From Thermodesulfovibrionia bacterium (GTDB lineage Bacteria; Nitrospirota; Thermodesulfovibrionia; UBA6902): a stretch of DNA of 64,000 bases. The notes below the pieces were generated by a model that had not been told where the DNA came from, ran no database searches, and was given only the letters and a program-made list of their open reading frames with translations. The DNA is taken from assembly GCA_947259645.1 (NCBI GenBank), contig CAMYND010000009.1, positions 7,241 through 71,240 of the forward strand, read 5' to 3'. The position numbers and the translations under genes were made by a program. How positions within the stretch are numbered: the first letter of the stretch is position 1; each line of letters opens with the position of its first letter. Of the stretch, positions 51,836 through 64,000 are shown piece after piece.

Positions 51836-52369
51836 ATGGCTACTTTTAAGGATCGTATTATTCGAGCTGCTAAACTGGATGTTCACCTGTACGAGGAAGT
51901 TGAGGCTGACAAGGAGGCAATGAGTCAAGCCATGGGGGTTGTTATTCTCTCCAGTTTAGCAGCCGGGATAGGAAGTATTGCAATAGGAGGCATTGGCGGG
52001 CTTTTAATAGGAACCATCTCAGCTCTTATAGGGTGGTATGTCTGGGCATATCTCACTTACTTTATTGGTACAAAAGTCCTTCCAGAGCCACAGACCAGAG
52101 CAGACCATGCTGAGTTATTACGCACTATCGGGTTTGCAAGCTCTCCTGGCTTGATTCGAGTATTGGGCATCATTCCTGGGCTGGCAGGAGTGGTTTTTAT
52201 AGGTGCCTCTATTTGGATGCTGGTGGCAATGGTGATTGCGGTCAGACAAGCTCTTGATTATAAGAGCACCGTACGCGCTGTAGGAGTTTGTGCGATTGGC
52301 TGGATTATTCAAGCAGTAATCCTCGCGTTAGTGTTTGCTATTTTTGGTGGTCCCGCAAAACCTGTCTAA
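51836..52369 (+). CDS. Yip1-domain membrane protein
   Basis: Soluble N-terminal segment, then five TM helices with Gly-rich packing. Length and topology fit the Yip1/DUF1282 family. Confidence 0.4.
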   Translation: MATFKDRIIRAAKLDVHLYEEVEADKEAMSQAMGVVILSSLAAGIGSIAIGGIGGLLIGTISALIGWYVWAYLTYFIGTKVLPEPQTRADHAELLRTIGFASSPGLIRVLGIIPGLAGVVFIGASIWMLVAMVIAVRQALDYKSTVRAVGVCAIGWIIQAVILALVFAIFGGPAKPV

Positions 52370-52475
52370 TTACAGAATAGGAAAGTTCAAGAGCGGAGAA
52401 AATTGAGGCATGGTCATTGTGAAAGCAATAAGTTCATCGTTGATTCAAAACGTTAAGAAACAGGTGCAAGCATCA

Positions 52476-54932
52476 TTAAGTCCCCTCTACCTTCACCGTA
52501 TTAATAGGATGCTCTCCATTTGAAGACAGGCGTGTGAGCATGTTTATTCTGGCATGGGGAAAGTGAGTTGGTACGAAGACCGTTCCTTCTGGCACATCGT
52601 CGGAGAGGGCAGCCTTGAGAAATACTGAGCCCTGTCGCGATGAGACCTTAACGTGGCTGTTGTCCGCGATGTCATATTTTTTCGCGTCTTCTTCATTGAT
52701 CTCCAAAAGAGCTTCCGACACAACAAGGTCAAGTGATTTTGAACTGGTAGACATGCTCCCGGAGTGCTGGAGAATATCTCTGATCACGAGTTTAAAGGGG
52801 TATTCTTTGTCTGCTTCTTCTCCCGGCCTGAATTCGACAGGATGAAAAGTTCTCTGAACAGAGACAGGATCCGCAGGACTGCCTGCATCCCCGATTTCTT
52901 CCTTAACAGCAGCGAGATCTCTTATCCCGACATCTTTGCCCATGGAGAGGGCAAGATTTTTCAGGATCATCCAGTCAGGCATGGACTGGCCGGTCGCGTC
53001 AGCAAGTTTATATACTGTCTGGTGAGTGCCTTCAGCGTTAATGAAGGTGCCGTCCTTTTCTGCCCAGCTTGAAGCCGGAAGCACAACATTAGCAAGTTTT
53101 GCTGTCTCGGTCATGAAAATATCCTGTACAACGAGAAAATCCAGGGATTTTAATTTAGCCATCACTTTGGAGCTGTCCGGAAAAGTCGTCACAGGATCCT
53201 CCCCCATAATATAGAGGGCTTTTACGGAGTTGTCCTCATAGAGCATCTTTACAATATCTTTGTCAGATGGTTGCATGGGTCTGACGCCCATATTATAAAG
53301 ACCATAGGTATTTGAGTATTCAGCAGGGACCTGGAGTGAATCAGGCTCGTCGCCGAGAAGATTAATGAGGTTTGCAGCAGCAAGTACTGTATCCAGTCCT
53401 TTTGTGTTTTCTGAAGTACTGACTGAAAGGGATATCATTCTGCTCTTTGCATTGCCAATGGACTCTGCTGCGGCTATAATTTCCTCTTCACTGATCCCTG
53501 TTATTTTTGAGACGTTTTCAGGTGTGTAGTTCTTCAGAGTTGACTGAAGTGACGAGAACTCAGGAATGGCTGATGCAGCGCTCTTATCGTATAAGCCTTT
53601 ATCCAGTATTACCTTTGTTAATCCATTAACAAGCGCAAGGCTTGTTCCGTCCTTGATTTCAAGCCAATCAGTGCTGTGCCGGGTGAGTTTTGTTTCCCGG
53701 GAATCAGCTACTATAAGCTTGCTGCCTGCTCTCATTGCCTCGAGGATGTTAATTCCATATACCGGGTGGGTTACGCTTATATCTGATTCAAGAATCAGAA
53801 TGACCTCTTTCCCTGCGGGAGCGTTAAGGCTTATGGGGTGATTCTTCTGGCCGAATGCTTTTTCCCATACTTTTTGCACTCCGCCATATCCAAAGGCCGC
53901 GGATGAGTCAAGGTTGTTTGTGCCGACCACGTTCTTCATGAATTTCTGAAGCACATAATTGTCTTCATTCGTGCAGCGGGGAGAACCGATCGCGCCTATT
54001 GACGAGGCACTGGAATTTTTTGAGATCTTCTCAAGGTTTTTTGCAACGTAGGAGAGGGCATCTTCCCATGATACGCTTTTAAACTCATCGCCTTCCTTAA
54101 TGAGCGGTGTCTTGAGGCGCTTTTCACTATAGATATAATCAATGCCGAATCTGCCGCGTCCGCAGAGGTTTCCGTCATTTACTCCTGTTCCCTGTTTTCC
54201 TCTGGACCTGAGAATTTTTCCCTCCCTCATGCCGAGATGGAGCGTGCAGCCAACGCCGCAGAAGGGACAGATGGTGCTTTTCTCCTCAAGAAACCATGAG
54301 CGTGAGGTAAATTTGTAGGGTTTGCTCAAGATCGCTCCGGTTGGACAAATATCAAGGCATTGCCCGCAGTAGTCACACTCGAGTATTTCGCCAAAAGCAG
54401 GCTGAACAACCGTTGGGAACCCCCTGCCGATCAGTCCCAGGGCACCTCTTCCCTGATGGTCTCTGCAGATTCGTACGCACTTTCCGCAAAGGATGCAGCG
54501 CCGTGACGTAAGTTCAATTAACGGGCCCCGGATGTCTGATTTCGTCTCTTTTCTGGACCGGATAAACCGTGTGTCAGGTTTGCCGTATTCATAGGCGAGG
54601 TCCTGGAGGTCACATTCCCCAGCCTTGTCACATTCAGGACAGTCAAGGGGATGATGGACCAGGAGGAGTTCTATTACTGTCTGGCGCTGTTTCCTTAATT
54701 TTGGTGTGTCTGTCTGAATGACCATTCCGTCAGCAGCAGGGGAAGAGCATGCTGCAAGAAGACGGGCCTGACCCTCTACTTCAACAATGCAGAGCCTGCA
54801 TCCCCCGTAAGGCCTGAGCCTCTTGTCGTAGCACAAATTCGGGATATAAATATCATTTTGCAAAGCAGCTTCCAGAATGGTGCAACCCTGTTCTGCCTGG
54901 ATTTTCTTGTTGTTTATCGTGAGATTCATCAT
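52476..54932 (-). CDS. molybdopterin-oxidoreductase-fold subunit, FdhA/NuoG-like (N-terminal 2Fe-2S, His-ligated 4Fe-4S, 2x 4Fe-4S and MopB cluster); catalytic Sec/Cys apparently absent
   Basis: CYDKRLRPYGGCRLC (2Fe-2S). HHPLDCPECDKAGECD. CILCGKCVRIC and CDYCGQCLDICP. CPFCGVGC (MopB FS0). C-terminal molybdopterin-dinucleotide-binding-like domain. Where FdhF has GTNNVDCCARV-U-HGPS, this protein has GTNNLDSSAAFGYGGV. Confidence 0.6.
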   Translation of the reverse strand: MMNLTINNKKIQAEQGCTILEAALQNDIYIPNLCYDKRLRPYGGCRLCIVEVEGQARLLAACSSPAADGMVIQTDTPKLRKQRQTVIELLLVHHPLDCPECDKAGECDLQDLAYEYGKPDTRFIRSRKETKSDIRGPLIELTSRRCILCGKCVRICRDHQGRGALGLIGRGFPTVVQPAFGEILECDYCGQCLDICPTGAILSKPYKFTSRSWFLEEKSTICPFCGVGCTLHLGMREGKILRSRGKQGTGVNDGNLCGRGRFGIDYIYSEKRLKTPLIKEGDEFKSVSWEDALSYVAKNLEKISKNSSASSIGAIGSPRCTNEDNYVLQKFMKNVVGTNNLDSSAAFGYGGVQKVWEKAFGQKNHPISLNAPAGKEVILILESDISVTHPVYGINILEAMRAGSKLIVADSRETKLTRHSTDWLEIKDGTSLALVNGLTKVILDKGLYDKSAASAIPEFSSLQSTLKNYTPENVSKITGISEEEIIAAAESIGNAKSRMISLSVSTSENTKGLDTVLAAANLINLLGDEPDSLQVPAEYSNTYGLYNMGVRPMQPSDKDIVKMLYEDNSVKALYIMGEDPVTTFPDSSKVMAKLKSLDFLVVQDIFMTETAKLANVVLPASSWAEKDGTFINAEGTHQTVYKLADATGQSMPDWMILKNLALSMGKDVGIRDLAAVKEEIGDAGSPADPVSVQRTFHPVEFRPGEEADKEYPFKLVIRDILQHSGSMSTSSKSLDLVVSEALLEINEEDAKKYDIADNSHVKVSSRQGSVFLKAALSDDVPEGTVFVPTHFPHARINMLTRLSSNGEHPINTVKVEGT

Positions 54933-56782
54933 TATTTGTCACCTCCCTCTTTAACTGCCGAGACAGGTTTTTCTTTCCGGATGGCCGGCTTTACCTCAAT
55001 TGAGGCGAATTTGCAGGTGTCATAGCATGACCTGCACTGTATGCACAGTTCCTGAATGATCCTGTGGGCCTTTTTCTTTTCTCCGACGATGGCTTCCTGC
55101 GGACATGCCCGCAGGCAGGCACCGCATCCCTTGCACAGTTCTTCGGAAATATGAAATGAGCAGAGGTCGCTGCATATTCCTGCTTCACACCAATGATCTT
55201 TAATGTGTGCTTCATATTCATGTTTGAAATATCGTATCGTGGAAAGGACGGGATTCGGGGCTGTCTGGCCGAGTCCGCAAAGAGATGTACTGATAATGTC
55301 CCTGCTCAGGTCTTCAAGCTTTTCAATATCGCCTTCCTGTCCTCTGCCCTCTGTTATGTCGGTGAGCATATCGAGCATTACTCTTGTTCCGACGCGGCAG
55401 GGGGTGCATTTCCCGCATGATTCATCGGCGGTAAACTCAAGAAAAAACTTTGCCGTGCTCACCATGCAAGTGTCTTCGTCCATTACTACCATTCCTCCTG
55501 AACCCATGATAGCACCGGTCTTGACAATGTCTTCGTAGGTTACGGGGATGTCGATATGGTCCTCGGGGATACAGCCTCCTGAGGGGCCGCCCATTTGCAC
55601 GGACTTGAACTTTTTCTTTTTGTTTGTCATCCCGCCACCGATATCATAGATAATCGTTTTCAGAGGGGTTCCCATGGGGACTTCGACGAGCCCGACGTTT
55701 TTTATATCCCCTGTAAGGGCAAATACCTTTGTGCCGGTACTCTTTTCAGTCCCCAGTGACTTGTACCATTCAGCCCCGTTCAGGATGGTTGGGGCTATCT
55801 GTGCCAGGGTCTCAACGTTGTTCAGGACTGATGGCTTGTCCCACAGGCCCTTATGGGCAGGGAAGGGAGGACGTGGTCTTGGCATACCGCGCTTTCCTTC
55901 AATGGAACGCATCAGCGCTGTTTCTTCACCGCATACAAATGCCCCTGCACCCAGGTATATTTCAAGGTCAAAGTTAAATCCGCTTCCCAAAATGTTTTCA
56001 CCAAGAAGACCATTCTCACGACAAAGCTTAATCGCTGTTTCAAGCCTCGCTACTGCCAGCGGATACTCGGCTCTGACGTAGATTACGCCTTTGCTCGCGC
56101 CTATCGCCTTTGCGCCGATTAACATGCCTTCGATTACTGAGTGGGGATCAGATTCCATAACAGACCTGTCCATGAATGCCCCGGGGTCACCTTCGTCACC
56201 GTTGCACAGCATGAACTTCTGGTCAGCTACTGACTTTGAGGCGAACTCCCACTTTAACCCTGTCGGGAAACCTGCTCCTCCCCGTCCCCTGATTCCTGCG
56301 TCTTTAATAGTCTGTATTATATCTTCCGGGGTCATTTCCGTTAAGGCCTTACCAGCAGCCATATACCCGTCTCGTGCGATGTACTCATCCAGGCTGTCAG
56401 GATCAATGAGCCCCTTATTCCTCAGGACCCTCAATACCTGGTGCTTGAAGAACGGGATATCATTCATTAATGGAATGGCTGCCCTCTTCTCAGGGTCCTT
56501 GAACATCAGTTTTTCATAGGGCCGGCCTTTCAGGAAGTGCTCTTCAACAAGTTTCGGGACTTCCGCGACAGTCAATTTCTGATAAAAGATCTCTTCAGGG
56601 TACACCAGCATTACAGGCCCTTCAGCACAGAATCCGTTGCATCCGGTCAGCACGATCTTTACCTCGTCGGCAAGGCCCTGCTTTTCCAGCTCTTCCTGAA
56701 GGGCATCTTTAACCTTGGGGGTCCCGCTTGCAACGCATCCGGTCCCGGCACACATGAGTAAATTGGCACGATATTTTTCCAT
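54932..56782 (-). CDS. NuoF/HndC-like NAD(P)H-binding flavoprotein subunit with N-terminal thioredoxin-like 2Fe-2S domain and C-terminal 2x[4Fe-4S] ferredoxin domain
   Basis: GRGGAGFPTGLKWEF (FMN/NADH site). ESCGKCTPCRVGT (N3 cluster). CKGCGACLRACP and CIQCRSCYDTC ferredoxin motifs. N-terminal CAGTGC...C. Confidence 0.8.
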   Translation of the reverse strand: MEKYRANLLMCAGTGCVASGTPKVKDALQEELEKQGLADEVKIVLTGCNGFCAEGPVMLVYPEEIFYQKLTVAEVPKLVEEHFLKGRPYEKLMFKDPEKRAAIPLMNDIPFFKHQVLRVLRNKGLIDPDSLDEYIARDGYMAAGKALTEMTPEDIIQTIKDAGIRGRGGAGFPTGLKWEFASKSVADQKFMLCNGDEGDPGAFMDRSVMESDPHSVIEGMLIGAKAIGASKGVIYVRAEYPLAVARLETAIKLCRENGLLGENILGSGFNFDLEIYLGAGAFVCGEETALMRSIEGKRGMPRPRPPFPAHKGLWDKPSVLNNVETLAQIAPTILNGAEWYKSLGTEKSTGTKVFALTGDIKNVGLVEVPMGTPLKTIIYDIGGGMTNKKKKFKSVQMGGPSGGCIPEDHIDIPVTYEDIVKTGAIMGSGGMVVMDEDTCMVSTAKFFLEFTADESCGKCTPCRVGTRVMLDMLTDITEGRGQEGDIEKLEDLSRDIISTSLCGLGQTAPNPVLSTIRYFKHEYEAHIKDHWCEAGICSDLCSFHISEELCKGCGACLRACPQEAIVGEKKKAHRIIQELCIQCRSCYDTCKFASIEVKPAIRKEKPVSAVKEGGDK

Positions 56783-56913
56783 ATCTTTTCCCTCTATCTA
56801 TAAAGTAGTATTCTGATCCTCTGTTTTCTGAAAAATATCAATCTCCTGAATGTAATCAGGATAATAAACGTTGTGTATTGTTTTTGTCTTTACGCTGACA
56901 GCTGAAAGCTGAA

Positions 56914-57297
56914 TTAATACGTTGTCTCACTCCCCATCACGAGGGCATATTTCTCTACAGGTGTGCCGCCGAGGACATGATCCTTAAAGATCTCCTTCAG
57001 TTTATCAACGGTAACATCGCCATATTTTACCGGTGTGTTATCAGCTATTTCCACGGTCATCATCGGTTCACGGGCACAGAGTCCGGCGCAGCCTGAGGTG
57101 GTGGTAATAACATCATTAACTTTAGATTCTGTGATTTCATCTATCAGGGCTGTCATGATATCCCGCGCTCCCGCTGCTATTCCGCAGGTTCCCATATGAA
57201 CGGTAACTTTTGCCCTGTATCCGCCTTCTCTCAGGTTGAATGTTGCCTGCTGTTTTTCTTTTATTTTCTTTAAATCAGCGATCGTTAACTTTGCCAT
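56914..57297 (-). CDS. HndB-like small thioredoxin-fold [2Fe-2S] ferredoxin
   Basis: 127 aa. HMGTCGIAAGA...SGCAGLCAREP Cys pattern matches the NuoE/HndB-type 2Fe-2S fold. Confidence 0.55.
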   Translation of the reverse strand: MAKLTIADLKKIKEKQQATFNLREGGYRAKVTVHMGTCGIAAGARDIMTALIDEITESKVNDVITTTSGCAGLCAREPMMTVEIADNTPVKYGDVTVDKLKEIFKDHVLGGTPVEKYALVMGSETTY

Positions 57298-57381
57298 TTG
57301 AGTCCTCCTGTTATTGCTGTGCCCGTTGTTTCAGTTACTAAAACGTGCATGAATCAGTAACACAGATTGCCGAACCTTTTA

Positions 57382-58254
57382 TCATGCGTATTCTTCCAGA
57401 ACACCCTGAACCTTTTTTGGTGTCATTGCACCGTATGTTTCTTCATCCACGACAATAACAGGCGCAAGACCGCATGCCCCGAGGCACCGTACTGTTTCGA
57501 TAGAGAATTTTTTGTCTTCCGTAACCTCTCCAACATCTATTTTGAGCGTTGATTTGAATTTTTCCAGTACTTCCTCTACTCTCTTTACGTAGCACGCTGT
57601 GCCGAGACATACCCTGACATTATGGTCCCCTCTGGGTTTCATGGTGAAATAGGAATAAAATGTCACGATACTGTGAATTTCTGCCGGAGACATATTGAGC
57701 CCCTTCGCGACCCGTTTCTGCACAACAGGGGGCAAATATCCGACGATTGCCTGACAGCGCTGGAGAACAGGGATTGAACTTCCCGGCTTGTTCCTGTACT
57801 CCTTTATGACCCGGTCAATCTCCTGTCTCATGGACGGGGGAAATTCTTCCTCTTTTTTCTCTTCTTCAACAGCAGCCTTGCCCTTTATCCACTGCACTGA
57901 CCGTTCTGTTACGTCCAGAAGCACTGCCGGGGTAAAGGGTTTCGGCACATAATCGATTATTCCGGCTTCAAGGGCATCTTTAATCGTATCCTGTGACGGG
58001 TACCCCGTGATGACAACGATACCGGTGTCAGGCCTGTTCTGCCTGATCCACTTAATAAGGGTGATACCATCTACTTCAGGCATCTTAAGGTCAGTGAATA
58101 CGAGGTCATAGGGGGTCTGCTCCATCTTCAGTATCGCCTCTTTGCCTCCCAGAACTCCTTCGATATTGTACCCTTCGGACCTGAGTACCGATTCGCAGCT
58201 TCTGATAATGACGGGCTCATCGTCAACAACCAGAATTTTAATATCATCTGCCAT
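57382..58254 (-). CDS. response-regulator receiver domain fused to NuoE/HndA-like [2Fe-2S] subunit
   Basis: N-terminal CheY-like domain (ILVVDDEPVII...DLVFTDLKMPEVDG...KPF). C-terminal NuoE signature (IPVLQRCQAIVGYLPP...VCLGTACYVKRVEEV...VRCLGACGLAPV). Confidence 0.75.
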   Translation of the reverse strand: MADDIKILVVDDEPVIIRSCESVLRSEGYNIEGVLGGKEAILKMEQTPYDLVFTDLKMPEVDGITLIKWIRQNRPDTGIVVITGYPSQDTIKDALEAGIIDYVPKPFTPAVLLDVTERSVQWIKGKAAVEEEKKEEEFPPSMRQEIDRVIKEYRNKPGSSIPVLQRCQAIVGYLPPVVQKRVAKGLNMSPAEIHSIVTFYSYFTMKPRGDHNVRVCLGTACYVKRVEEVLEKFKSTLKIDVGEVTEDKKFSIETVRCLGACGLAPVIVVDEETYGAMTPKKVQGVLEEYA

Positions 58255-58426
58255 AAGAAGCCTCCATTGCGCTGTTTATAGGTGGACGTTTAAATGAAAA
58301 GGCAGGCTTTACACGTATTGAGAAACACCCGGGACAATTATGTGCATGGACCTGTTTATTCATATTTGCTGTTCAGTGTACCTGTTACCAATTTCTGTCT
58401 TATCCTTCGATCTGAGAGACAAAACC

Positions 58427-59191
58427 CTATTTTGCTAAGGGGAATACTTTTGCCAGCCAAAGAAGCCATCCTTCTGATAGATGGTCCTTAAGAAGTGCTG
58501 CCATGACGTCATTCGCCTTCGTATTGATCTCTCTGAGCTCTCCATTCATGGGAGAAAGCAGGCTTTGTGATTTGCCGCTGCTTGTATAAATATTCGCAAA
58601 AACCTGACCCGCATCAAGGGTATCCAGATCTTTAACAAACTCTACATACATTAAATCTCCTGCAAGCATCCAGTATCTCAGGTCACAGCCGACTTCCCAC
58701 AGTCCGTCGCCGGAGGGTCGTGCCCAGGTGCCTTCTTTATAAAAAATAACAGGGTTTTCCTGGTCCCGCAGGGGTGATACAAAGTCCCTGAAATCGTCAA
58801 TAAAGGCCTGCCGCAATATCCAGCCCCGGGTGTCAAAAACCTTCTGGGCGACATTAAGCATAAAGTCAGGGGTAAAGGGTTTTTCAATGTATTCCGCTGC
58901 TCCCAGTTTTGACGATTCCTTGGCATCTTCCAGAGTCGGGTAACCCGTAATTATCACTACGTCTGTTTTCGGCTTGATGACACGGGCTTCCTTAAGCACT
59001 TCTAGCCCGCTCATTCCCGGCATTTTCACATCGGATATCAGGAGGTCAAAATCTTCTTTTGAGAGTTTATTGAGGGCATCTTCTCCGTTATCTACCGTGG
59101 AAATGCTGTAACCTTCAGCTCCGAGAATTCTCTTGCAGCTTAAGGTTACAATTGGATCATCATCGACTACTAGTATTCTCCCTTTTTCCAT
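58427..59191 (-). CDS. response-regulator receiver domain fused to a GcvH-like (lipoyl/biotinyl-type hybrid barrel) domain
   Basis: N-terminal CheY-like domain (ILVVDDDPIV...DLLISDVKMPGMSG...KPF). The C-terminal about 120 aa aligns by eye with glycine-cleavage H protein (FYKEGTW...GLWEVGCD...AGDLMYVEF...YTSSGKSQSLLSPMNGELREIN...EGWLLWLA), including a Lys at the lipoyl-Lys position. Confidence 0.5.
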   Translation of the reverse strand: MEKGRILVVDDDPIVTLSCKRILGAEGYSISTVDNGEDALNKLSKEDFDLLISDVKMPGMSGLEVLKEARVIKPKTDVVIITGYPTLEDAKESSKLGAAEYIEKPFTPDFMLNVAQKVFDTRGWILRQAFIDDFRDFVSPLRDQENPVIFYKEGTWARPSGDGLWEVGCDLRYWMLAGDLMYVEFVKDLDTLDAGQVFANIYTSSGKSQSLLSPMNGELREINTKANDVMAALLKDHLSEGWLLWLAKVFPLAK

Positions 59192-59295
59192 TACGCCCCC
59201 TCCTGGCTGTTATGACTCTCCGATTACATCAGACTGGTGCACCCATAACCGGACAGCCTTTAATTGGGTCTATAGTATCATATTATTTCTATAAT

Positions 59296-59820
59296 TTAGC
59301 CAGCACTTATAGCGTCTTTAATAATTTTTATTACGTCCGGCGTATTAATCGGGATATTGCCCAGCTCTTTTTTTATTTCAGATGTATCTAAAACGTATGT
59401 TTTATCATCTCTTTTGTGTTCGAAGAAAAAATCAATTTCAGGATTAGATACTATCAGAACGATCAGTGTTTTTCCAACATCTCCCATGGGTTTCCTGTCT
59501 ATGTGGTCATGCTGAAAAGATACGGATATGGAGGTGCCCCCGCCTTTTTGAGAGGTCACCTGTATGTCCCCCCTGCACTCCCGTGCAGCCTGGGCGAGCA
59601 TCGGGATGCCAAGCCCCACTTTTCTCGTCGTCCTTGTAGTGTAAAAGGGATCGCAGGCATGTTCCAGCAGTTCCGCGTCCATCCCCTGTCCGTTGTCTTT
59701 AATGTCTATAGTCAGGATATTGTCTTTGACACTTTCCCTCAGCCTGATCTCAATTCTGGACGCCCCCGCTGTTATCGAGTTTTCAACAATATCAAGGATA
59801 TGTAATGATAGATCTTCCAT
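59296..59820 (-). CDS. GHKL-type ATPase domain protein (histidine-kinase-like / anti-sigma-factor-like Ser kinase), no HisKA or sensor domain
   Basis: N-box region ILDIVENSITAG. G1 DNGQGM. G2 GLGIPM. C-terminal about 70 aa of unknown function. Confidence 0.6.
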   Translation of the reverse strand: MEDLSLHILDIVENSITAGASRIEIRLRESVKDNILTIDIKDNGQGMDAELLEHACDPFYTTRTTRKVGLGIPMLAQAARECRGDIQVTSQKGGGTSISVSFQHDHIDRKPMGDVGKTLIVLIVSNPEIDFFFEHKRDDKTYVLDTSEIKKELGNIPINTPDVIKIIKDAISAG

Positions 59821-59934
59821 AATTGTGATTTATCTTGCCACAGACTTGCACAGACTTAAAGACATGATACTATCTCTATTACTGTTTAGTGCTTAACCTG
59901 CTTTTGTCTGTGTTAGTCAGTGGCTGAATAATCT

Positions 59935-60675
59935 TCACTCCCATTCCACCTTTCTTCCATCTTTGTTTTTCATTGCCATTCTTATCTCTGTAATTGACGG
60001 GGCCTGCAGGGAGAAATTTGAAATTTTTTTTGCAATGTCTGCCGGATAGTGGGCGTCAGAGGACGCTATCCAGGTATATGAGCTGTAGTCTTTGAACAGG
60101 CTCTCAGCCTTTTCCCTTGTCATATTCGGGGACATTTCAAGGGCGTCAAAGTTCATCTGATCCGGGATAAATCCCAGCTGCGACAGTATACTGAAGGCCC
60201 CCCTGTCAATATGTGAGGCTATGGCCAGACCGCCCAGATCGTGGATGGTCTCTATTATTGTTTGAGCAGGCAGATCAGTGGCGGCTATGAGCATCCGATT
60301 GTTCATGCCTAACACTTCATCCTGTTCATTGACAATTACCTGCTCCCCGAATCTGCTTACATCATTGGTCCCGGGAAGAAGGTTTTTATATACAATTTCC
60401 TGTAGATCTAAAATACGATCGTCATCAAAGATCCCCAGGATATGTGCTTCTTCTGAAGATGCTACCTCCATACCGGCAAGAACAGTAAGGTTGAACTGCG
60501 CTGCGGATTTTCTTGCTGCCTGCACATTTTCAGCAGAATTGTGGTCAGTAATAGCGATGATATCCAGACCCTTTTGTGAAGCGGTCTCAATAATTGAAGC
60601 AGGGGTCATATCCAGTTCAGCGCAGGGGGAAAGGCAGGTATGTATATGCAGGTCAGCTTTATATTGTTTCAACAT
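59935..60675 (-). CDS. PHP-domain metal-dependent phosphoesterase
   Basis: DLHIHTCLSPCA and IIAITDHNS His motifs of the PHP superfamily. Confidence 0.7.
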   Translation of the reverse strand: MLKQYKADLHIHTCLSPCAELDMTPASIIETASQKGLDIIAITDHNSAENVQAARKSAAQFNLTVLAGMEVASSEEAHILGIFDDDRILDLQEIVYKNLLPGTNDVSRFGEQVIVNEQDEVLGMNNRMLIAATDLPAQTIIETIHDLGGLAIASHIDRGAFSILSQLGFIPDQMNFDALEMSPNMTREKAESLFKDYSSYTWIASSDAHYPADIAKKISNFSLQAPSITEIRMAMKNKDGRKVEWE

Positions 60676-60708
60676 AAGAGGTTTTCAGGATTCTGTTCAG
60701 CAGCTCTT

Positions 60709-61044
60709 TTACCTGTCAAGCAGTTGATAAAGCTTTCCTGCTGCTTCAAATGCCGGCAGGGGTGTTGTCATGACAGTTACTTTTTCGGCCCGGGCCTTCT
60801 CTATGACGTCTTCCGCCGGTTTTCTGTTTCCCACAATAATTATTCCGGCCAGGCCTTTCATATCAGCTACAGCGATAATATTCAGGTGAGTCTGAAGCGT
60901 AATCCATATATTCCCTACATTGCTGTTGGCCATAACATCAGACAGGAGATCACTGACATATGCTCCCGTGACTTCATTATTCATGCTTTCTTCACAGGTT
61001 ACTATTTCCAGCGACAAGTCTTTGATCAGATCCTGAAGATTCAT
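60709..61044 (-). CDS. DRTGG-domain protein
   Basis: About 110 aa with a core resembling the DRTGG domain (IAVADMKGLAGIIIVGN...). Confidence 0.5.
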   Translation of the reverse strand: MNLQDLIKDLSLEIVTCEESMNNEVTGAYVSDLLSDVMANSNVGNIWITLQTHLNIIAVADMKGLAGIIIVGNRKPAEDVIEKARAEKVTVMTTPLPAFEAAGKLYQLLDR

Positions 61045-61085
61045 AACATGACCCCTTTTGTAGTATTTCTCAGTATGAAATATGT

Positions 61086-61523
61086 CTACGGGATATTTAA
61101 AACCATCTCCACTGTCGTGCCTTCGCCCACAACAGACTCAATATTAAATTCATCTGAGTTCTTTTTCATGTTCGGGAGCCCCATTCCTGCTCCCCAGCCC
61201 ATTTCCCGCACCCACTCGGGAGCGGTCGAGTACCCCTCCTGCATTGCCTGCTCGATATTTTCAATGCCGGGCCCCATGTCTTCAATCCTGATCCGGATGG
61301 AAGACGGGCCAATAAAGTACAGCAGTCGTGCTGCTGCCGCGTATATAATTACATTGATTTCCGCTTCAAAGGTGGCGATAGCGGCACGCCGTATGATTTC
61401 TTCAGCAACACCGAGATCAGTGAGCGTCCGTTTCAGCTCGCCAGAGGCCTCACCGGCAGTGGCAAAGTTTCCGCCTACGAGCTGAAAGCTGCCTTCTATT
61501 GTTTTGTCACTATTCAGTGGCAT
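61086..61523 (-). CDS. GHKL-type ATPase, anti-sigma-factor/RsbW-like Ser kinase
   Basis: EAEINVIIYA N-box-like. DMGPGI (G1). GAGMGL (G2). About 145 aa, like SpoIIAB/RsbW. Confidence 0.6.
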   Translation of the reverse strand: MPLNSDKTIEGSFQLVGGNFATAGEASGELKRTLTDLGVAEEIIRRAAIATFEAEINVIIYAAAARLLYFIGPSSIRIRIEDMGPGIENIEQAMQEGYSTAPEWVREMGWGAGMGLPNMKKNSDEFNIESVVGEGTTVEMVLNIP

Positions 61524-61527
61524 CTGC

Positions 61528-61878
61528 TTACTTGTCCAGACATCCCGGTAACCCCTCTTTAAACAGCCTTCCTGAGGCGGTGTACATGCAGAAGGATGTG
61601 CTTAACAGGGGGATTTTTTTCTTTTGAGCCAGGTCGATAGTTTCTTTGTCCGGCTTCTTATCCAGGACAAAAACAATGGATTTGATCCCCGCTATTTCAG
61701 CGGTACGGATAACATGAGGCTGGGTGAGGCTGGTGATAAGCAGTGAGTTGGGTGTGTGGTAATACAGGACAGCGCTCATCATATCAGCACTGCAGGCGCT
61801 GTGAATATCTATCTCTGAATTCTCAGGATTTGCGATGATAGATGCTTCAAGAATTTTAGCTATCTCTTTTAAAATCAT
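61528..61878 (-). CDS. DRTGG-domain protein (second copy)
   Basis: About 116 aa paralogous to 60709-61044 (LITSLTQPHVIRTAEIAGIKSIVFV). Its stop overlaps the downstream GHKL gene. Confidence 0.5.
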   Translation of the reverse strand: MILKEIAKILEASIIANPENSEIDIHSACSADMMSAVLYYHTPNSLLITSLTQPHVIRTAEIAGIKSIVFVLDKKPDKETIDLAQKKKIPLLSTSFCMYTASGRLFKEGLPGCLDK

Positions 61879-61901
61879 ATGATTAGCATCTCAGATGCGC
61901 T

Positions 61902-62267
61902 TTAGTCCGATGGTCCGAATACTTCCTGAACCGCTTTAAGCAGCGTGTCGGGTGTAAAAGGCTTTTCTATAAAGTTATATGCACCGACTCTCAGCGCCTG
62001 AACAGCCGTATCAACTGTGCTGTAGCCTGTTACCATAACAACTTTCGTCTCCGGCCAGTTCTCCTTTATTTTGCTGAGCACCTCCATGCCGTCCATGTCC
62101 GGCATTTTCAGGTCAAGCAGAACCAGTGCGAAGGTTTCCTTTTCAAGGCACGCTATCCCTTCTTTGCCGCTGGCCGTGAGCGTCACATCATATCCTTCCG
62201 GGGTCAGGGTCCTGTCGCAGCTTGTCCTGACTATGGCTTCATCATCTACTACGAGAATTTTTTTCAT
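61902..62267 (-). CDS. single-domain response regulator (CheY-like receiver)
   Basis: ILVVDDEAIV...LVLLDLKMPDMDG...KPF. Start overlaps the upstream kinase stop (ATGA). Confidence 0.8.
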   Translation of the reverse strand: MKKILVVDDEAIVRTSCDRTLTPEGYDVTLTASGKEGIACLEKETFALVLLDLKMPDMDGMEVLSKIKENWPETKVVMVTGYSTVDTAVQALRVGAYNFIEKPFTPDTLLKAVQEVFGPSD

Positions 62268-63850
62268 GATTCTAAGGGTAGTCTAACAAAAAAGCTGGTG
62301 CCTTTACCAATGGTGCTCTTGACCTTTATATGGCCGCCCAGGTGCTTCACAATTCCATGACTTACAGAGAGACCGAGCCCTGTTCCTTTCCCGACCGGCT
62401 TGGTTGTGAAAAAGGGTTCAAAGAGCTTTGGCATGTCCTCTTCCTTTATTCCGCACCCTTCGTCTGTAAACTCTATTTCAACATAGGGCTTTTCATTTTC
62501 CAATGCCCCCCTCGTTCTAATGGTGATATTCCCCCGGCCATTCATGGCGTCAGCAGCATTAATGAACATGTTCAGAAAAATCTGCTGGAACTGAGAACCA
62601 TCGCCTACAACGACAAACTGCTTGTCCGCGAAATCCGGGTTGAATTTTATATGGTGAAACTTTGCCTGGTTCTGCACCATGAATATTGTCCTGTTCAGCA
62701 CCTCATTAATGCTTACCTTGCCTTTCTCAGAAGGTGTCGCACGGGCGAAGGTGAGAAGGTTTTTGATGATTTTTGCGCATCGTTCAGACTGTTCAATAAT
62801 AATATCGAGGTCCTGTGATTCGGTGCTTTCCGGGGGAAACCTCTTCTTTAACAGGTGAGCAAATGTGACGACTCCGGTTAAAGGGTTGTTAATTTCATGG
62901 GCCACCCCCGCGGCCATTCTTCCCAGAGATGCCAGCTTTTCAGTCTGCATGAGGTTGGCATGGGTCTTCTGGATTTCATCTGTTTTCTTTTCAATTTCTA
63001 CTTCAAGGGTCTGGGTCCATCGTTCCCGCTGGTCTCTGGCCCCTTTCAGGTCACGGATCATCGAGTTGAATGTTCGCGCCAATTTGCCGATTTCATCATC
63101 TGATCTCACCTGAACAGTGTTCTCGAGGTTCCCGCCGGAAACCTTCTCCATTCCCTGGACAAGCTCATTGACCGGTTTGGAAACAATTTTATAGAGGATG
63201 ATTCCAAGAAAGATCGATACGGCAAGAACAAACATGATAACGTACGCGGTCAGGGCGAGCCCCTGCTTTAAGAGGGCCTCATCCAGAACAGCAAGGGAGA
63301 GGTCTGCCTTCACAAAGCCGAGTATTTCCGGGCTTTCCGGATGGGCGTGACAGGCTGCCGTGGAACATTCGGGGGCGTTTAAAATCGATTCTACCATGTG
63401 CAGCGAGGTTTTACCTTTTTCGTCTCTGTGGACGAACAGTTTTCTGGTTTCTGTCAGCAATTCCCCTGATTCACTGTTGGAATGACATCCGGTGCAGGCT
63501 ATAGATGTTCTGTCAACAGAGTTCCCTGCTTTTTCTGATTTTGATGAAAATACAATGTTGCCGCGATGGTCGTAGATCTGAACGCCCTGAACACCTTCCG
63601 GCGTGCTGAGGGTGTCCAGTACGCGCTGGGTTTCTTCCCTGTCAAATATAAGCATGCTGCGGCGTGTGCTGGCTTTCGTGAAGTTTACAAAAGACCTGCC
63701 GTACTTGGTCGCAATCGACAGAACATCTTTTTCCTGCTTTTGAAGAATGGCATACCAGAAGATGAGGCTCAGTATAATCATCAGGAGGCCGATGGCGATA
63801 ATAAGCTTTGCAGCTATGGATTTATCGGGATTGCGGAGAATATTTTTCAT
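62264..63850 (-). CDS. sensor histidine kinase with a periplasmic di-heme c-type cytochrome sensor domain
   Basis: TM1. Periplasmic domain with two CxxCH motifs (CTGCH, CSTAACH). TM2, HAMP-like linker and HisKA H-box (AAGVAHEINNPL). HATPase_c G-boxes (DEGCGI, GTGLGLS). Confidence 0.75.
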   Translation of the reverse strand: MKNILRNPDKSIAAKLIIAIGLLMIILSLIFWYAILQKQEKDVLSIATKYGRSFVNFTKASTRRSMLIFDREETQRVLDTLSTPEGVQGVQIYDHRGNIVFSSKSEKAGNSVDRTSIACTGCHSNSESGELLTETRKLFVHRDEKGKTSLHMVESILNAPECSTAACHAHPESPEILGFVKADLSLAVLDEALLKQGLALTAYVIMFVLAVSIFLGIILYKIVSKPVNELVQGMEKVSGGNLENTVQVRSDDEIGKLARTFNSMIRDLKGARDQRERWTQTLEVEIEKKTDEIQKTHANLMQTEKLASLGRMAAGVAHEINNPLTGVVTFAHLLKKRFPPESTESQDLDIIIEQSERCAKIIKNLLTFARATPSEKGKVSINEVLNRTIFMVQNQAKFHHIKFNPDFADKQFVVVGDGSQFQQIFLNMFINAADAMNGRGNITIRTRGALENEKPYVEIEFTDEGCGIKEEDMPKLFEPFFTTKPVGKGTGLGLSVSHGIVKHLGGHIKVKSTIGKGTSFFVRLPLES

Positions 63851-64000
63851 ATCCGTGTATTATAGGTGCGTTTTTGTTTTTTTAAAAGAATTAAATAATA
63901 AAATTTCAGTTATTTATAAATGTTCATTTTGCAATGTAGCATTCTCAAAATTGCCGGTAAGCATAATTCCGGGGTATTGCTGATAAATAAGTTAAAACTA

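Follow-up and report, generated by a model that had tools for sequence, protein, structure and literature searches.

A recurrent DRTGG-GHKL-PHP cassette beside NuoEF-type bifurcating enzymes is a candidate sensor-coupled switch

What do small DRTGG-domain proteins, GHKL ATPases without a HisKA domain and a PHP phosphoesterase do beside a NuoEFG-like enzyme complex that is not a hydrogenase? The question is raised by a 64,000-nucleotide stretch of contig CAMYND010000009.1 (positions 7,241 to 71,240) from a Thermodesulfovibrionia bacterium of the Nitrospirota, here called the window, whose own numbering is used throughout. On its minus strand, twelve closely spaced genes run from 63850 to 52476 (Table 1), and within them five genes that fill 59296-61878 exactly encode, in this order, DRTGG1, GHKL1, DRTGG2, PHP and GHKL2. 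All five proteins reach the Pfam gathering scores, in agreement with an initial annotation that had read these domains from the sequence alone; it had set detection of the DRTGG proteins by hidden Markov models as a test of its reading, and both open reading frames score above the PF07085 cutoff. We propose that this five-gene cassette is a sensor-coupled, ATP-dependent switch that acts post-translationally on a core of NuoE, the ferredoxin HydD and HydB-type NuoF, a reading to which we assign a probability of roughly 0.45. We regard the window as carrying a two-component-driven variant, devoid of the hydrogenase-like sensor HydS, of a widespread, annotated but uncharacterised regulatory cassette of the Bfu family of bifurcating enzymes.

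The arrangement of the five genes recurs far beyond chance. Homologs of the PHP protein form more than 7,000 protein clusters, and a scan of species-representative genomes yielded at least 592 confirmed PHP loci, the best 80 of which were kept and their mechanically called open reading frames searched with the window proteins. Metagenome-assembled genomes of Nitrospirota/Thermodesulfovibrionia hold the closest named relatives. The order DRTGG1-GHKL1-(X)-DRTGG2-PHP-GHKL2, in which X is a further gene present in part of the loci, comprises all five genes in 54 of the 61 loci with enough flanking sequence. The loci span at least nine phyla (Nitrospirota, Aminicenantes, Cloacimonadota, WOR-3, Terriglobia, KSB1, Dehalococcoidia, Ignavibacteria and Desulfobacterota), and the order is also kept in Firmicutes and Coprothermobacterota. 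The median gap is -4 bp between DRTGG1 and GHKL1 (66 loci), 3 bp between DRTGG2 and PHP (77 loci) and 7 bp between PHP and GHKL2; genes that overlap or nearly touch in this way hint at co-translation and at a complex of defined stoichiometry. In the window, only 4 bp lie between DRTGG1 and GHKL1, a spacing suggestive of translational coupling, and 41 bp (61045-61085) separate GHKL1 from DRTGG2.

The neighbours of the cassette are equally regular. NuoF is encoded within 10 kb in 24 of the 34 loci whose flanks reach at least 6 kb in each direction; by rough estimate, a random 20-kb stretch would include a member of a family represented by a handful of genes per genome in only a few percent of cases. 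Lack of enrichment beside NuoEF-type genes had been named beforehand as a ground for rejecting a link with NuoEF, and the counts give no such ground. Where NuoF lies on the same strand as the cassette, it has at least 586 amino acids and is thus of the HydB type in 39 of 42 cases; opposite-strand NuoF proteins in those loci are mostly of 414-422 amino acids (complex I type). As a separate observation, several Nitrospirota relatives (L003:1-3650, L005, L006, L010, L014, L049 and L067) have a second, complex I-type NuoE-NuoF(414-422 amino acids)-NuoG set, divergently oriented on the opposite strand a few kilobases upstream of the histidine kinase.

NuoE, a HydD-like ferredoxin and HydB-type NuoF are the constant neighbours of the cassette, and the A subunit of the enzyme varies: it is HydA in 2 cases (the Firmicutes loci analysed; Coprothermobacter is outside this count), formate dehydrogenase (Fdh)/NuoG-like in 20, an HdrA-like fusion in 21 and a NuoF-GltD protein in 15. 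HydA occurs only in loci of the Firmicutes type and Fdh/NuoG-like subunits occur in Nitrospirota, with the fusions elsewhere; a first regular expression for the H-cluster returned no HydA in the 80 loci. The combination of constant NuoE, HydD and NuoF with a varying A subunit is the strongest support for the earlier suggestion that the module regulates NuoEF itself: it favours a cassette that acts on the NuoEF (BfuBC) core over one that belongs to the hydrogenase. The accompanying statement that the module is attached here to a non-hydrogenase NuoEFG-like complex holds as well, since Pfam found no Fe_hyd_lg_C domain in the downstream NuoE-, NuoF- and NuoG-like proteins and many other loci have Fdh/NuoG-like, HdrA-like or NuoF-GltD partners.

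Some of these large subunits are unusual in themselves (L039:14114-15898, L043:11289-14561, L023:8179-11244 and L026:12834-16760, from Terriglobia, Cloacimonadota and Aminicenantes): NuoG-N/HdrA-like flavoprotein fusions of about 590 and about 1090 amino acids, and NuoF-GltD-like NAD(P)H fusions of 1015-1308 amino acids, one of them with a long Glu/Lys-rich repeat tail. The possibility that the 'NuoG_N' proteins of about 590 and about 1090 amino acids are hydrogenases was rejected, as they are HdrA-like fusions. Long NuoE proteins (295-426 amino acids) were likewise considered as fusions to a cassette domain, and this too was rejected because the extra part is an HdrA-like flavin adenine dinucleotide/Fe-S fragment.

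The enzyme of the window fits the layout of the Bfu (BfuABC/HydABC) family (PMC9304861) as judged from its domains, with the BfuB, BfuC and BfuA domain sets found in the products of 54932-56782, 57382-58254 and 52476-54932, respectively. Its HydD-like ferredoxin matches a clostridial 2Fe-2S ferredoxin model below the cutoff (6.6e-10, 39.5 bits against 150), and an ortholog lies between GHKL2 and HydB in Thermoanaerobacter and Caldicellulosiruptor bescii. The 818-amino-acid A subunit falls under the NCBIfam cutoffs for both Fdh-alpha (TIGR01591, 467 against 666) and NuoG. In an alignment to FdsA, the alpha subunit of a solved NAD-dependent formate dehydrogenase, the Cys-His pair is replaced by Gly348-Tyr349 (Gly348 at 53889-53891), and relatives of the subunit likewise have FGY. 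By its predicted residues the subunit is neither a hydrogenase nor a canonical formate dehydrogenase, and it may have no catalytic function.

A second line of evidence concerns the gene X. In 28 loci it encodes a protein of 420-458 amino acids in which an Fe_hyd_lg_C domain lies between two [4Fe-4S] motifs at the N-terminus and a four-Cys 'FeS' motif at the C-terminus; HydS, the 'putative sensory' [FeFe]-hydrogenase of group D (M2e), has this architecture. One X aligned to the published TamHydS coding sequence with 38% identity (E 2e-62; PMC13104023 supplement). Proteins of 425-458 amino acids that had first been taken as 'NuoF' are likewise HydS. A reconstructed TamHydS sequence was used to find exact homologs, whose genomic context was then read: in Thermoanaerobacter, C. 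bescii and Coprothermobacter the layout is DRTGG-GHKL(HATPase_c_2)-HydS-DRTGG-PHP-HydC(NuoE)-GHKL(HATPase_c/_3)-HydD-HydB-HydA. The hyd (HydABCD) operon with TamHydS hence encodes all five cassette proteins in the order seen in the window, beside NuoE (HydC), HydD and HydB. However, the window has neither HydS nor HydA, places GHKL2 before NuoE and not after it, and adds a histidine kinase with two haem motifs, a stand-alone receiver (REC) protein, a REC-GcvH-like protein and a REC-NuoE fusion.

The association with bifurcating [FeFe]-hydrogenase operons of the NuoEF type, stated in the initial annotation for 'hyd/hfs loci', is therefore real for hyd in Thermoanaerobacter, C. bescii and Coprothermobacter, but does not extend to hfs; the hfs operon carries PAS-HydS and a PP2C phosphatase (PMC11837493), and two distinct systems had been merged. 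The group C HydS/hfs system (PAS-HydS and the PP2C protein HfsC; HydS of R. albus) resembles the cassette in that a hydrogenase-like sensor stands with kinase/phosphatase-type genes near H2-metabolising enzymes (PMC11837493, PMC8163306), yet it has PAS and PP2C where the cassette has DRTGG, GHKL and PHP. The group D HydS itself, the usual middle gene of the cassette, had been overlooked, and with it the HydS-less nature of the window.

Among the 73 loci that could be classified by sensor, three types were found. HydS lies between GHKL1 and DRTGG2, directly downstream of GHKL1, in 28, and the HydS and GHKL1 genes have overlapping stop and start codons. In 14 loci (L043:8478-9410, L042:8721-9650, L061:8650-9657 and 11 others), annotated as Cloacimonadota, Dehalococcoidia, Nitrospirota and others, HydS is missing and GHKL1 starts with a fused pair of CBS domains; this form looks like an adenylate-sensing version of the cassette. 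The remaining 31 loci, all of the Nitrospirota type and including the window, have neither. The input of the cassette is thus swappable at one position, beside or fused to GHKL1, and the comparison shows that the sensor has been swapped three times in nature. A further combination was seen in KSB1, where a protein of 685 amino acids (L031:1262-3319), encoded about 4 kb upstream of a full cassette with its own HydS, combines a HydS-like hydrogenase domain with a complete DHp+CA histidine kinase.

In the loci without HydS or CBS pair, two-component proteins flank the cassette. A small REC protein is found beside it in 24 of 31 such loci, compared with 1 of 28 HydS loci and 1 of 14 CBS loci. In the window, its gene overlaps the histidine kinase gene by 4 bp and ends 23 bp upstream of DRTGG1. 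The periplasmic loop of the kinase, bounded by two predicted membrane helices, has a CxxCH (63482-63496) and a CxxxxCH motif (63347-63367). The two motifs recur with equal spacing in 18 further Nitrospirota loci, always in the kinase that precedes the cassette, and the kinase is a putative c-type dihaem redox sensor, haem binding being predicted from the motifs. Of the 31 HydS-less loci, 17 encode a REC-NuoE fusion, which is absent from all 42 HydS or CBS loci; the REC-GcvH-like protein has the same distribution (17/31 against 0/42) and strictly co-occurs with REC-NuoE. A REC domain on NuoE would be a direct His-Asp input into an electron-transfer subunit. The GcvH-like domain is similar to GcvH structures (4e-6), but a Ser takes the place of the lipoyl-Lys in the alignment, with a Lys two residues downstream, and lipoylation of the protein is uncertain. 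A promoter and terminator scan of 52000-64000 gave counts within about two standard deviations of shuffled sequences, and a promoter-like site directly upstream of the kinase start was its sole useful hint.

Table 1. Genes of the minus-strand cluster in the window, in order of transcription. Paired scores are bits/cutoff; REC, receiver domain; aa, amino acids.
Feature	Position	Strand	Properties
HAMP-HisKA-HATPase histidine kinase	62264-63850	-	528 aa; Pfam HAMP, HisKA, HATPase_c
Stand-alone REC	61902-62267	-	121 aa; Response_reg E 2.6e-33; acceptor Asp52 present
DRTGG1	61528-61878	-	116 aa, single domain; PF07085 34.4/25.2, E 2.1e-8
GHKL1	61086-61523	-	145 aa; HATPase_c_2 30.8/27.4, HATPase_c 27.2/26.4
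DRTGG2	60709-61044	-	111 aa; PF07085 27.5/25.2, E 3e-6
PHP phosphoesterase	59935-60675	-	246 aa; PF02811 39.9/26.4
GHKL2	59296-59820	-	174 aa; HATPase_c 63.5/26.4
REC-GcvH-like fusion	58427-59191	-	254 aa; Response_reg and GCV_H; Asp54 present
REC-NuoE/HydC fusion (BfuC-type [2Fe-2S] subunit)	57382-58254	-	290 aa; Response_reg 2.9e-29, 2Fe-2S_thioredx 6.3e-49; Asp55 present
HydD-like thioredoxin-like [2Fe-2S] ferredoxin	56914-57297	-	127 aa; weak 2Fe-2S_thioredx match
HydB/BfuB-type NuoF	54932-56782	-	616 aa; N-terminal [2Fe-2S], FMN/NADH module, C-terminal 2x[4Fe-4S]
BfuA-like Fdh/NuoG-like subunit	52476-54932	-	818 aa; Fer2_4, NADH-G_4Fe-4S_3, Molybdop_Fe4S4, Molybdopterin, Molydop_binding

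The five proteins themselves differ from what a duplicated module would contain. GHKL1 partially matches the NCBIfam model spIIAB (6.7e-15), its top PDB sequence matches are the anti-sigma F factor SpoIIAB (1.4e-5), and its N-box (E53..N57), G1 (D82xGxG) and G2 (G109xGAGMGLPN) boxes are intact and conserved, which points to a putative SpoIIAB-like GHKL ATPase or serine kinase without HisKA. GHKL2, the cassette member encoded beside NuoE/HydD, reaches only 17 bits with HATPase_c_2 against a cutoff of 27.4, and it is closest in fold to MutL, PMS1 and MLH1; it combines a MutL-like domain topology with sequence motifs like those of histidine kinases and is not anti-sigma-like. Compared with the N-terminal GHL ATPases of MutL, PMS1 and MLH1, its 174 amino acids come without transducer, linker and endonuclease domain, and its F-box and G2 motifs resemble those of histidine kinases. 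Pfam found no HisKA domain in either GHKL protein, in contrast to the flanking kinase with its HAMP, HisKA and HATPase_c domains; the HisKA/DHp domain joined to a HATPase that characterises two-component histidine kinases is thus missing from both. Directly after the Bergerat fold of GHKL2, residues 106-113 (59482-59505, minus strand) form a conserved HxDRxPxG motif loosely like the H-box of histidine kinases (HExxxP), yet C-terminal to the ATPase domain.

GHKL1 and GHKL2 have generic GHKL motifs alone in common (E 0.001) and are not close paralogs, and a simple tandem duplication of a DRTGG+GHKL pair was therefore rejected. In contrast, DRTGG1 and DRTGG2 align over their full length without gaps (25% identity, E 5e-15) and are, by their sequences, evidently paralogs. 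Residues D32, M34, S35, T49, T59, K74 and P76 of DRTGG1 are found in at least 90% of 64 orthologs, the motifs Y29xSDLLSDV37 and W47xTxQxHxN55 of DRTGG2 are kept in 76 orthologs, and conserved D32, S35 and T49 are common to both. DRTGG2 goes with PHP and not with GHKL2, since in Firmicutes hydC stands between PHP and GHKL2. The picture of two DRTGG+GHKL pairs that flank a PHP gene, as initially annotated, gives way to the units DRTGG1+GHKL1 and DRTGG2+PHP and a separate GHKL2, and of the two GHKL proteins described there as anti-sigma-like only GHKL1 deserves the name.

The metal ligands of PHP (H10, H12, H45, E70, H78, H155, D207 and H209) are kept in at least 90% of 83 orthologs. The best fold match of its AlphaFold2 model (predicted local distance difference test score, pLDDT, 84.9) is, with a query-normalised TM-score of 0.70 and E 2e-13, the PHP domain of Pyrococcus furiosus endonuclease Q (EndoQ; PDB 5zb8, 7k30), which is also its best sequence match; residues 7-243 align to EndoQ 5-231, nearly the entire protein. 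Unlike EndoQ with its approximately 400 amino acids, PHP has 246, lacks the Zn-finger and the C-terminal DNA-holding domains, shares just 20-22% identity and is encoded among redox enzymes and not repair genes. BAD_1165, TM0559, RNase AM and PolC are the next fold matches; the neighbours include a pAp-phosphatase-like protein, which follows EndoQ directly, and an AMP-bound enzyme of the amidohydrolase fold. All these relatives act on nucleic acids or nucleotides, which makes a role as protein phosphatase an assumption. Neither the PDB sequence matches (E<=0.01) nor the 50 listed Foldseek matches include a protein phosphatase of the CpsB/YwqE type, an absence that leaves room for protein phosphatase activity. 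Residues 108-127 of PHP (RFGEQVIVNEQDEVLGMNNR; 60295-60354, minus strand) are the sole region of the model with a pLDDT below 50 and at the same time among the best-conserved parts of the family, a pattern typical of a segment that becomes ordered on a partner; we regard them as a candidate partner-binding loop or lid.

From the domains, the synteny, the sensor swapping, the constant NuoE/HydD/NuoF neighbours, the REC-NuoE fusion and the intact ATP- and metal-binding motifs, all of which are observed, we infer every protein-protein contact, the phosphotransfer, the substrate of PHP and the effect on enzyme activity in the following model. The input would enter at GHKL1, because the CBS pair is fused there and HydS is encoded there, and the output would act at the protein level, because the cassette has no DNA-binding domain, its genes are interleaved with structural genes and a REC domain is fused to NuoE. 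In this model, (i) DRTGG1 and GHKL1 would form a sensor-coupled writer, with GHKL1 as a SpoIIAB-like ATP-binding kinase or binder that receives its input from HydS, from the fused CBS pair or, in the window, from the phosphorylated single-domain REC protein fed by the dihaem kinase; (ii) the state of the sensor would set the activity of GHKL1, which would phosphorylate or sequester a DRTGG protein, with Ser35 and Thr49, common to both paralogs, as candidate sites; (iii) PHP, bound via DRTGG2, would reverse this action as an eraser or reset; (iv) the state of the DRTGG proteins would govern the ATP-dependent docking of GHKL2 on NuoE/HydD, which would open or close electron flow through the flavin/[2Fe-2S] gate. 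In the window, a second line could run in parallel if the kinase phosphorylates the NuoE-fused REC domain and the REC-GcvH-like protein. We consider the specific form of a DRTGG phospho-switch doubtful. The same holds for the more far-reaching and, in our view, unlikely idea of a new class of bacterial switch, in which DRTGG proteins are the switch elements, GHKL1 writes, an EndoQ-like PHP erases, a MutL-like mini-GHKL is the effector and plug-in sensors gate Bfu bifurcation of any substrate type, with HydS reading H2 or redox state, the CBS pair adenylates, and the dihaem kinase and REC protein periplasmic redox state.

Several points weigh against our switch model as a whole. The likeness of GHKL2 to MutL exceeds that to any kinase, and the nearest relatives of PHP are EndoQ, a pAp-phosphatase-like protein, RNase AM and polymerase PHP domains. 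The conserved Ser and Thr residues of the DRTGG proteins may be structural residues of the fold as a whole. NuoF is missing from the surrounding 10 kb in 10 of the 34 well-flanked loci; moreover, the 80 loci are the best matches to this PHP protein out of at least 592, a biased and not a random sample, and the three Firmicutes/Coprothermobacter loci were picked through HydS.

The resemblance to RsbW-RsbV-RsbU partner switching that had been noted at first extends to GHKL1. As in the SpoIIAB-SpoIIAA-SpoIIE and RsbW-RsbV-RsbU systems, a small HisKA-less HATPase_c_2 protein stands beside a small single-domain protein, and a metal-dependent phosphoesterase is encoded in the operon. However, Pfam found no STAS, PP2C or sigma factor match in the 12 proteins of the cluster; it has DRTGG proteins as small partners, a PHP protein of nuclease/nucleotidase-like lineage as hydrolase and an additional MutL-like GHKL. 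The cassette lacks three of the four partner-switch features that can be tested in sequence and should not be classed there. A transcriptional output could nevertheless be imagined, in which GHKL1 is an anti-sigma factor or anti-activator, a DRTGG protein its antagonist and the regulator is encoded elsewhere, so that the cassette sets the expression of the operon. GHKL1 is indeed closest to SpoIIAB, TamHydS is reportedly flanked by an AraC-family regulator (PMC8163306), and several Nitrospirota and Aminicenantes loci have response regulators of NtrC length and histidine kinases next to the cassette. We nonetheless find this explanation improbable, as neither a sigma factor nor a DNA-binding gene is a conserved neighbour across 83 loci, Pfam and NCBIfam detect no DNA-binding domain in any cassette gene of the window, the cassette is translationally coupled to structural genes, with GHKL2 between hydC and hydD in Firmicutes, and the REC domain on NuoE itself points to control at the protein level.

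The embedding among structural genes would also suit a function in assembly or quality control, with GHKL2 as a MutL/Hsp90-like clamp, PHP processing a nucleotide cofactor or precursor, and the DRTGG proteins as adaptors in the insertion or repair of flavin mononucleotide and Fe-S clusters in NuoE/NuoF. The MutL-like fold of GHKL2, the nucleotide- and nucleic acid-directed relatives of PHP and the absence of the products from the purified holoenzyme (PMC9304861) are in line with this idea. The fixed-position plug-in sensors (HydS, CBS pair, or REC with kinase) are typical of signalling, not of maturation, and GHKL1 is like an anti-sigma kinase. To our knowledge, many HydB-type NuoF operons work without a known dedicated assembly factor, and we give this explanation little credence. 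Nor do we think it at all likely that the cassette reports energy charge without protein phosphorylation, as a nucleotide-signal module in which DRTGG and CBS domains bind AMP, ATP or ApnA, PHP hydrolyses the ligand and the GHKL proteins read or consume ATP. DRTGG2 does match the regulatory insert of CBS-type pyrophosphatases (NCBIfam 2.7e-5; PDB 3l2b, E 0.5), albeit weakly, 14 loci have GHKL1 joined to a CBS pair, and the fold neighbours of PHP include the pAp-phosphatase-like protein, the AMP-bound amidohydrolase-fold enzyme and RNase AM. The CBS-type family II pyrophosphatases carry DRTGG within a CBS-DRTGG-CBS insert, and the DRTGG proteins of the cassette are free-standing. Against the idea, the cassette has no nucleotide cyclase or synthetase, and its sensor is mostly HydS or a kinase with REC protein, not a CBS pair. 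Isolated DRTGG domains are not known to bind a ligand, and Pfam lists the domain as being of unknown function. A role in anti-phage defence was also considered and rejected: PADLOC returned generic PHP and GHKL matches (PDC-M49A, Ppl and MzaB) and no match at system level.

Our preferred reading, a sensor-coupled switch on the NuoEF core, can be set beside the little that has been written on these genes. Kinase-like genes in such operons are already known to specialists, but full-text literature searches returned no description of the cassette or its mechanism, only passing mentions (PMC8163306, PMC9304861). The genes 'hisK' and 'hydD' are listed solely as lying outside the Bfu holoenzyme (PMC9304861); by its name and its place beside hydD, 'hisK' is probably GHKL2, and a product that is not part of the purified holoenzyme fits a transient regulator. 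What is newly laid out here is the five-gene unit, its three types of sensor and its fidelity to the NuoEF core.

These results bear on how group D HydS proteins signal and on how bifurcating enzymes are regulated. The signal route of group D HydS has been stated to be unknown (PMC8163306), and the cassette offers a defined and widespread five-protein candidate for it. The question can be tested directly with a few small soluble proteins and in genetically tractable hosts. Bfu/HydABC-type enzymes have a central role in the energy conservation of anaerobes, as well as in the yields of H2, formate and ethanol from engineered thermophiles. If the new class of bacterial switch considered above exists, it would also be the missing signal-transduction route of the group D 'sensory' [FeFe]-hydrogenases.

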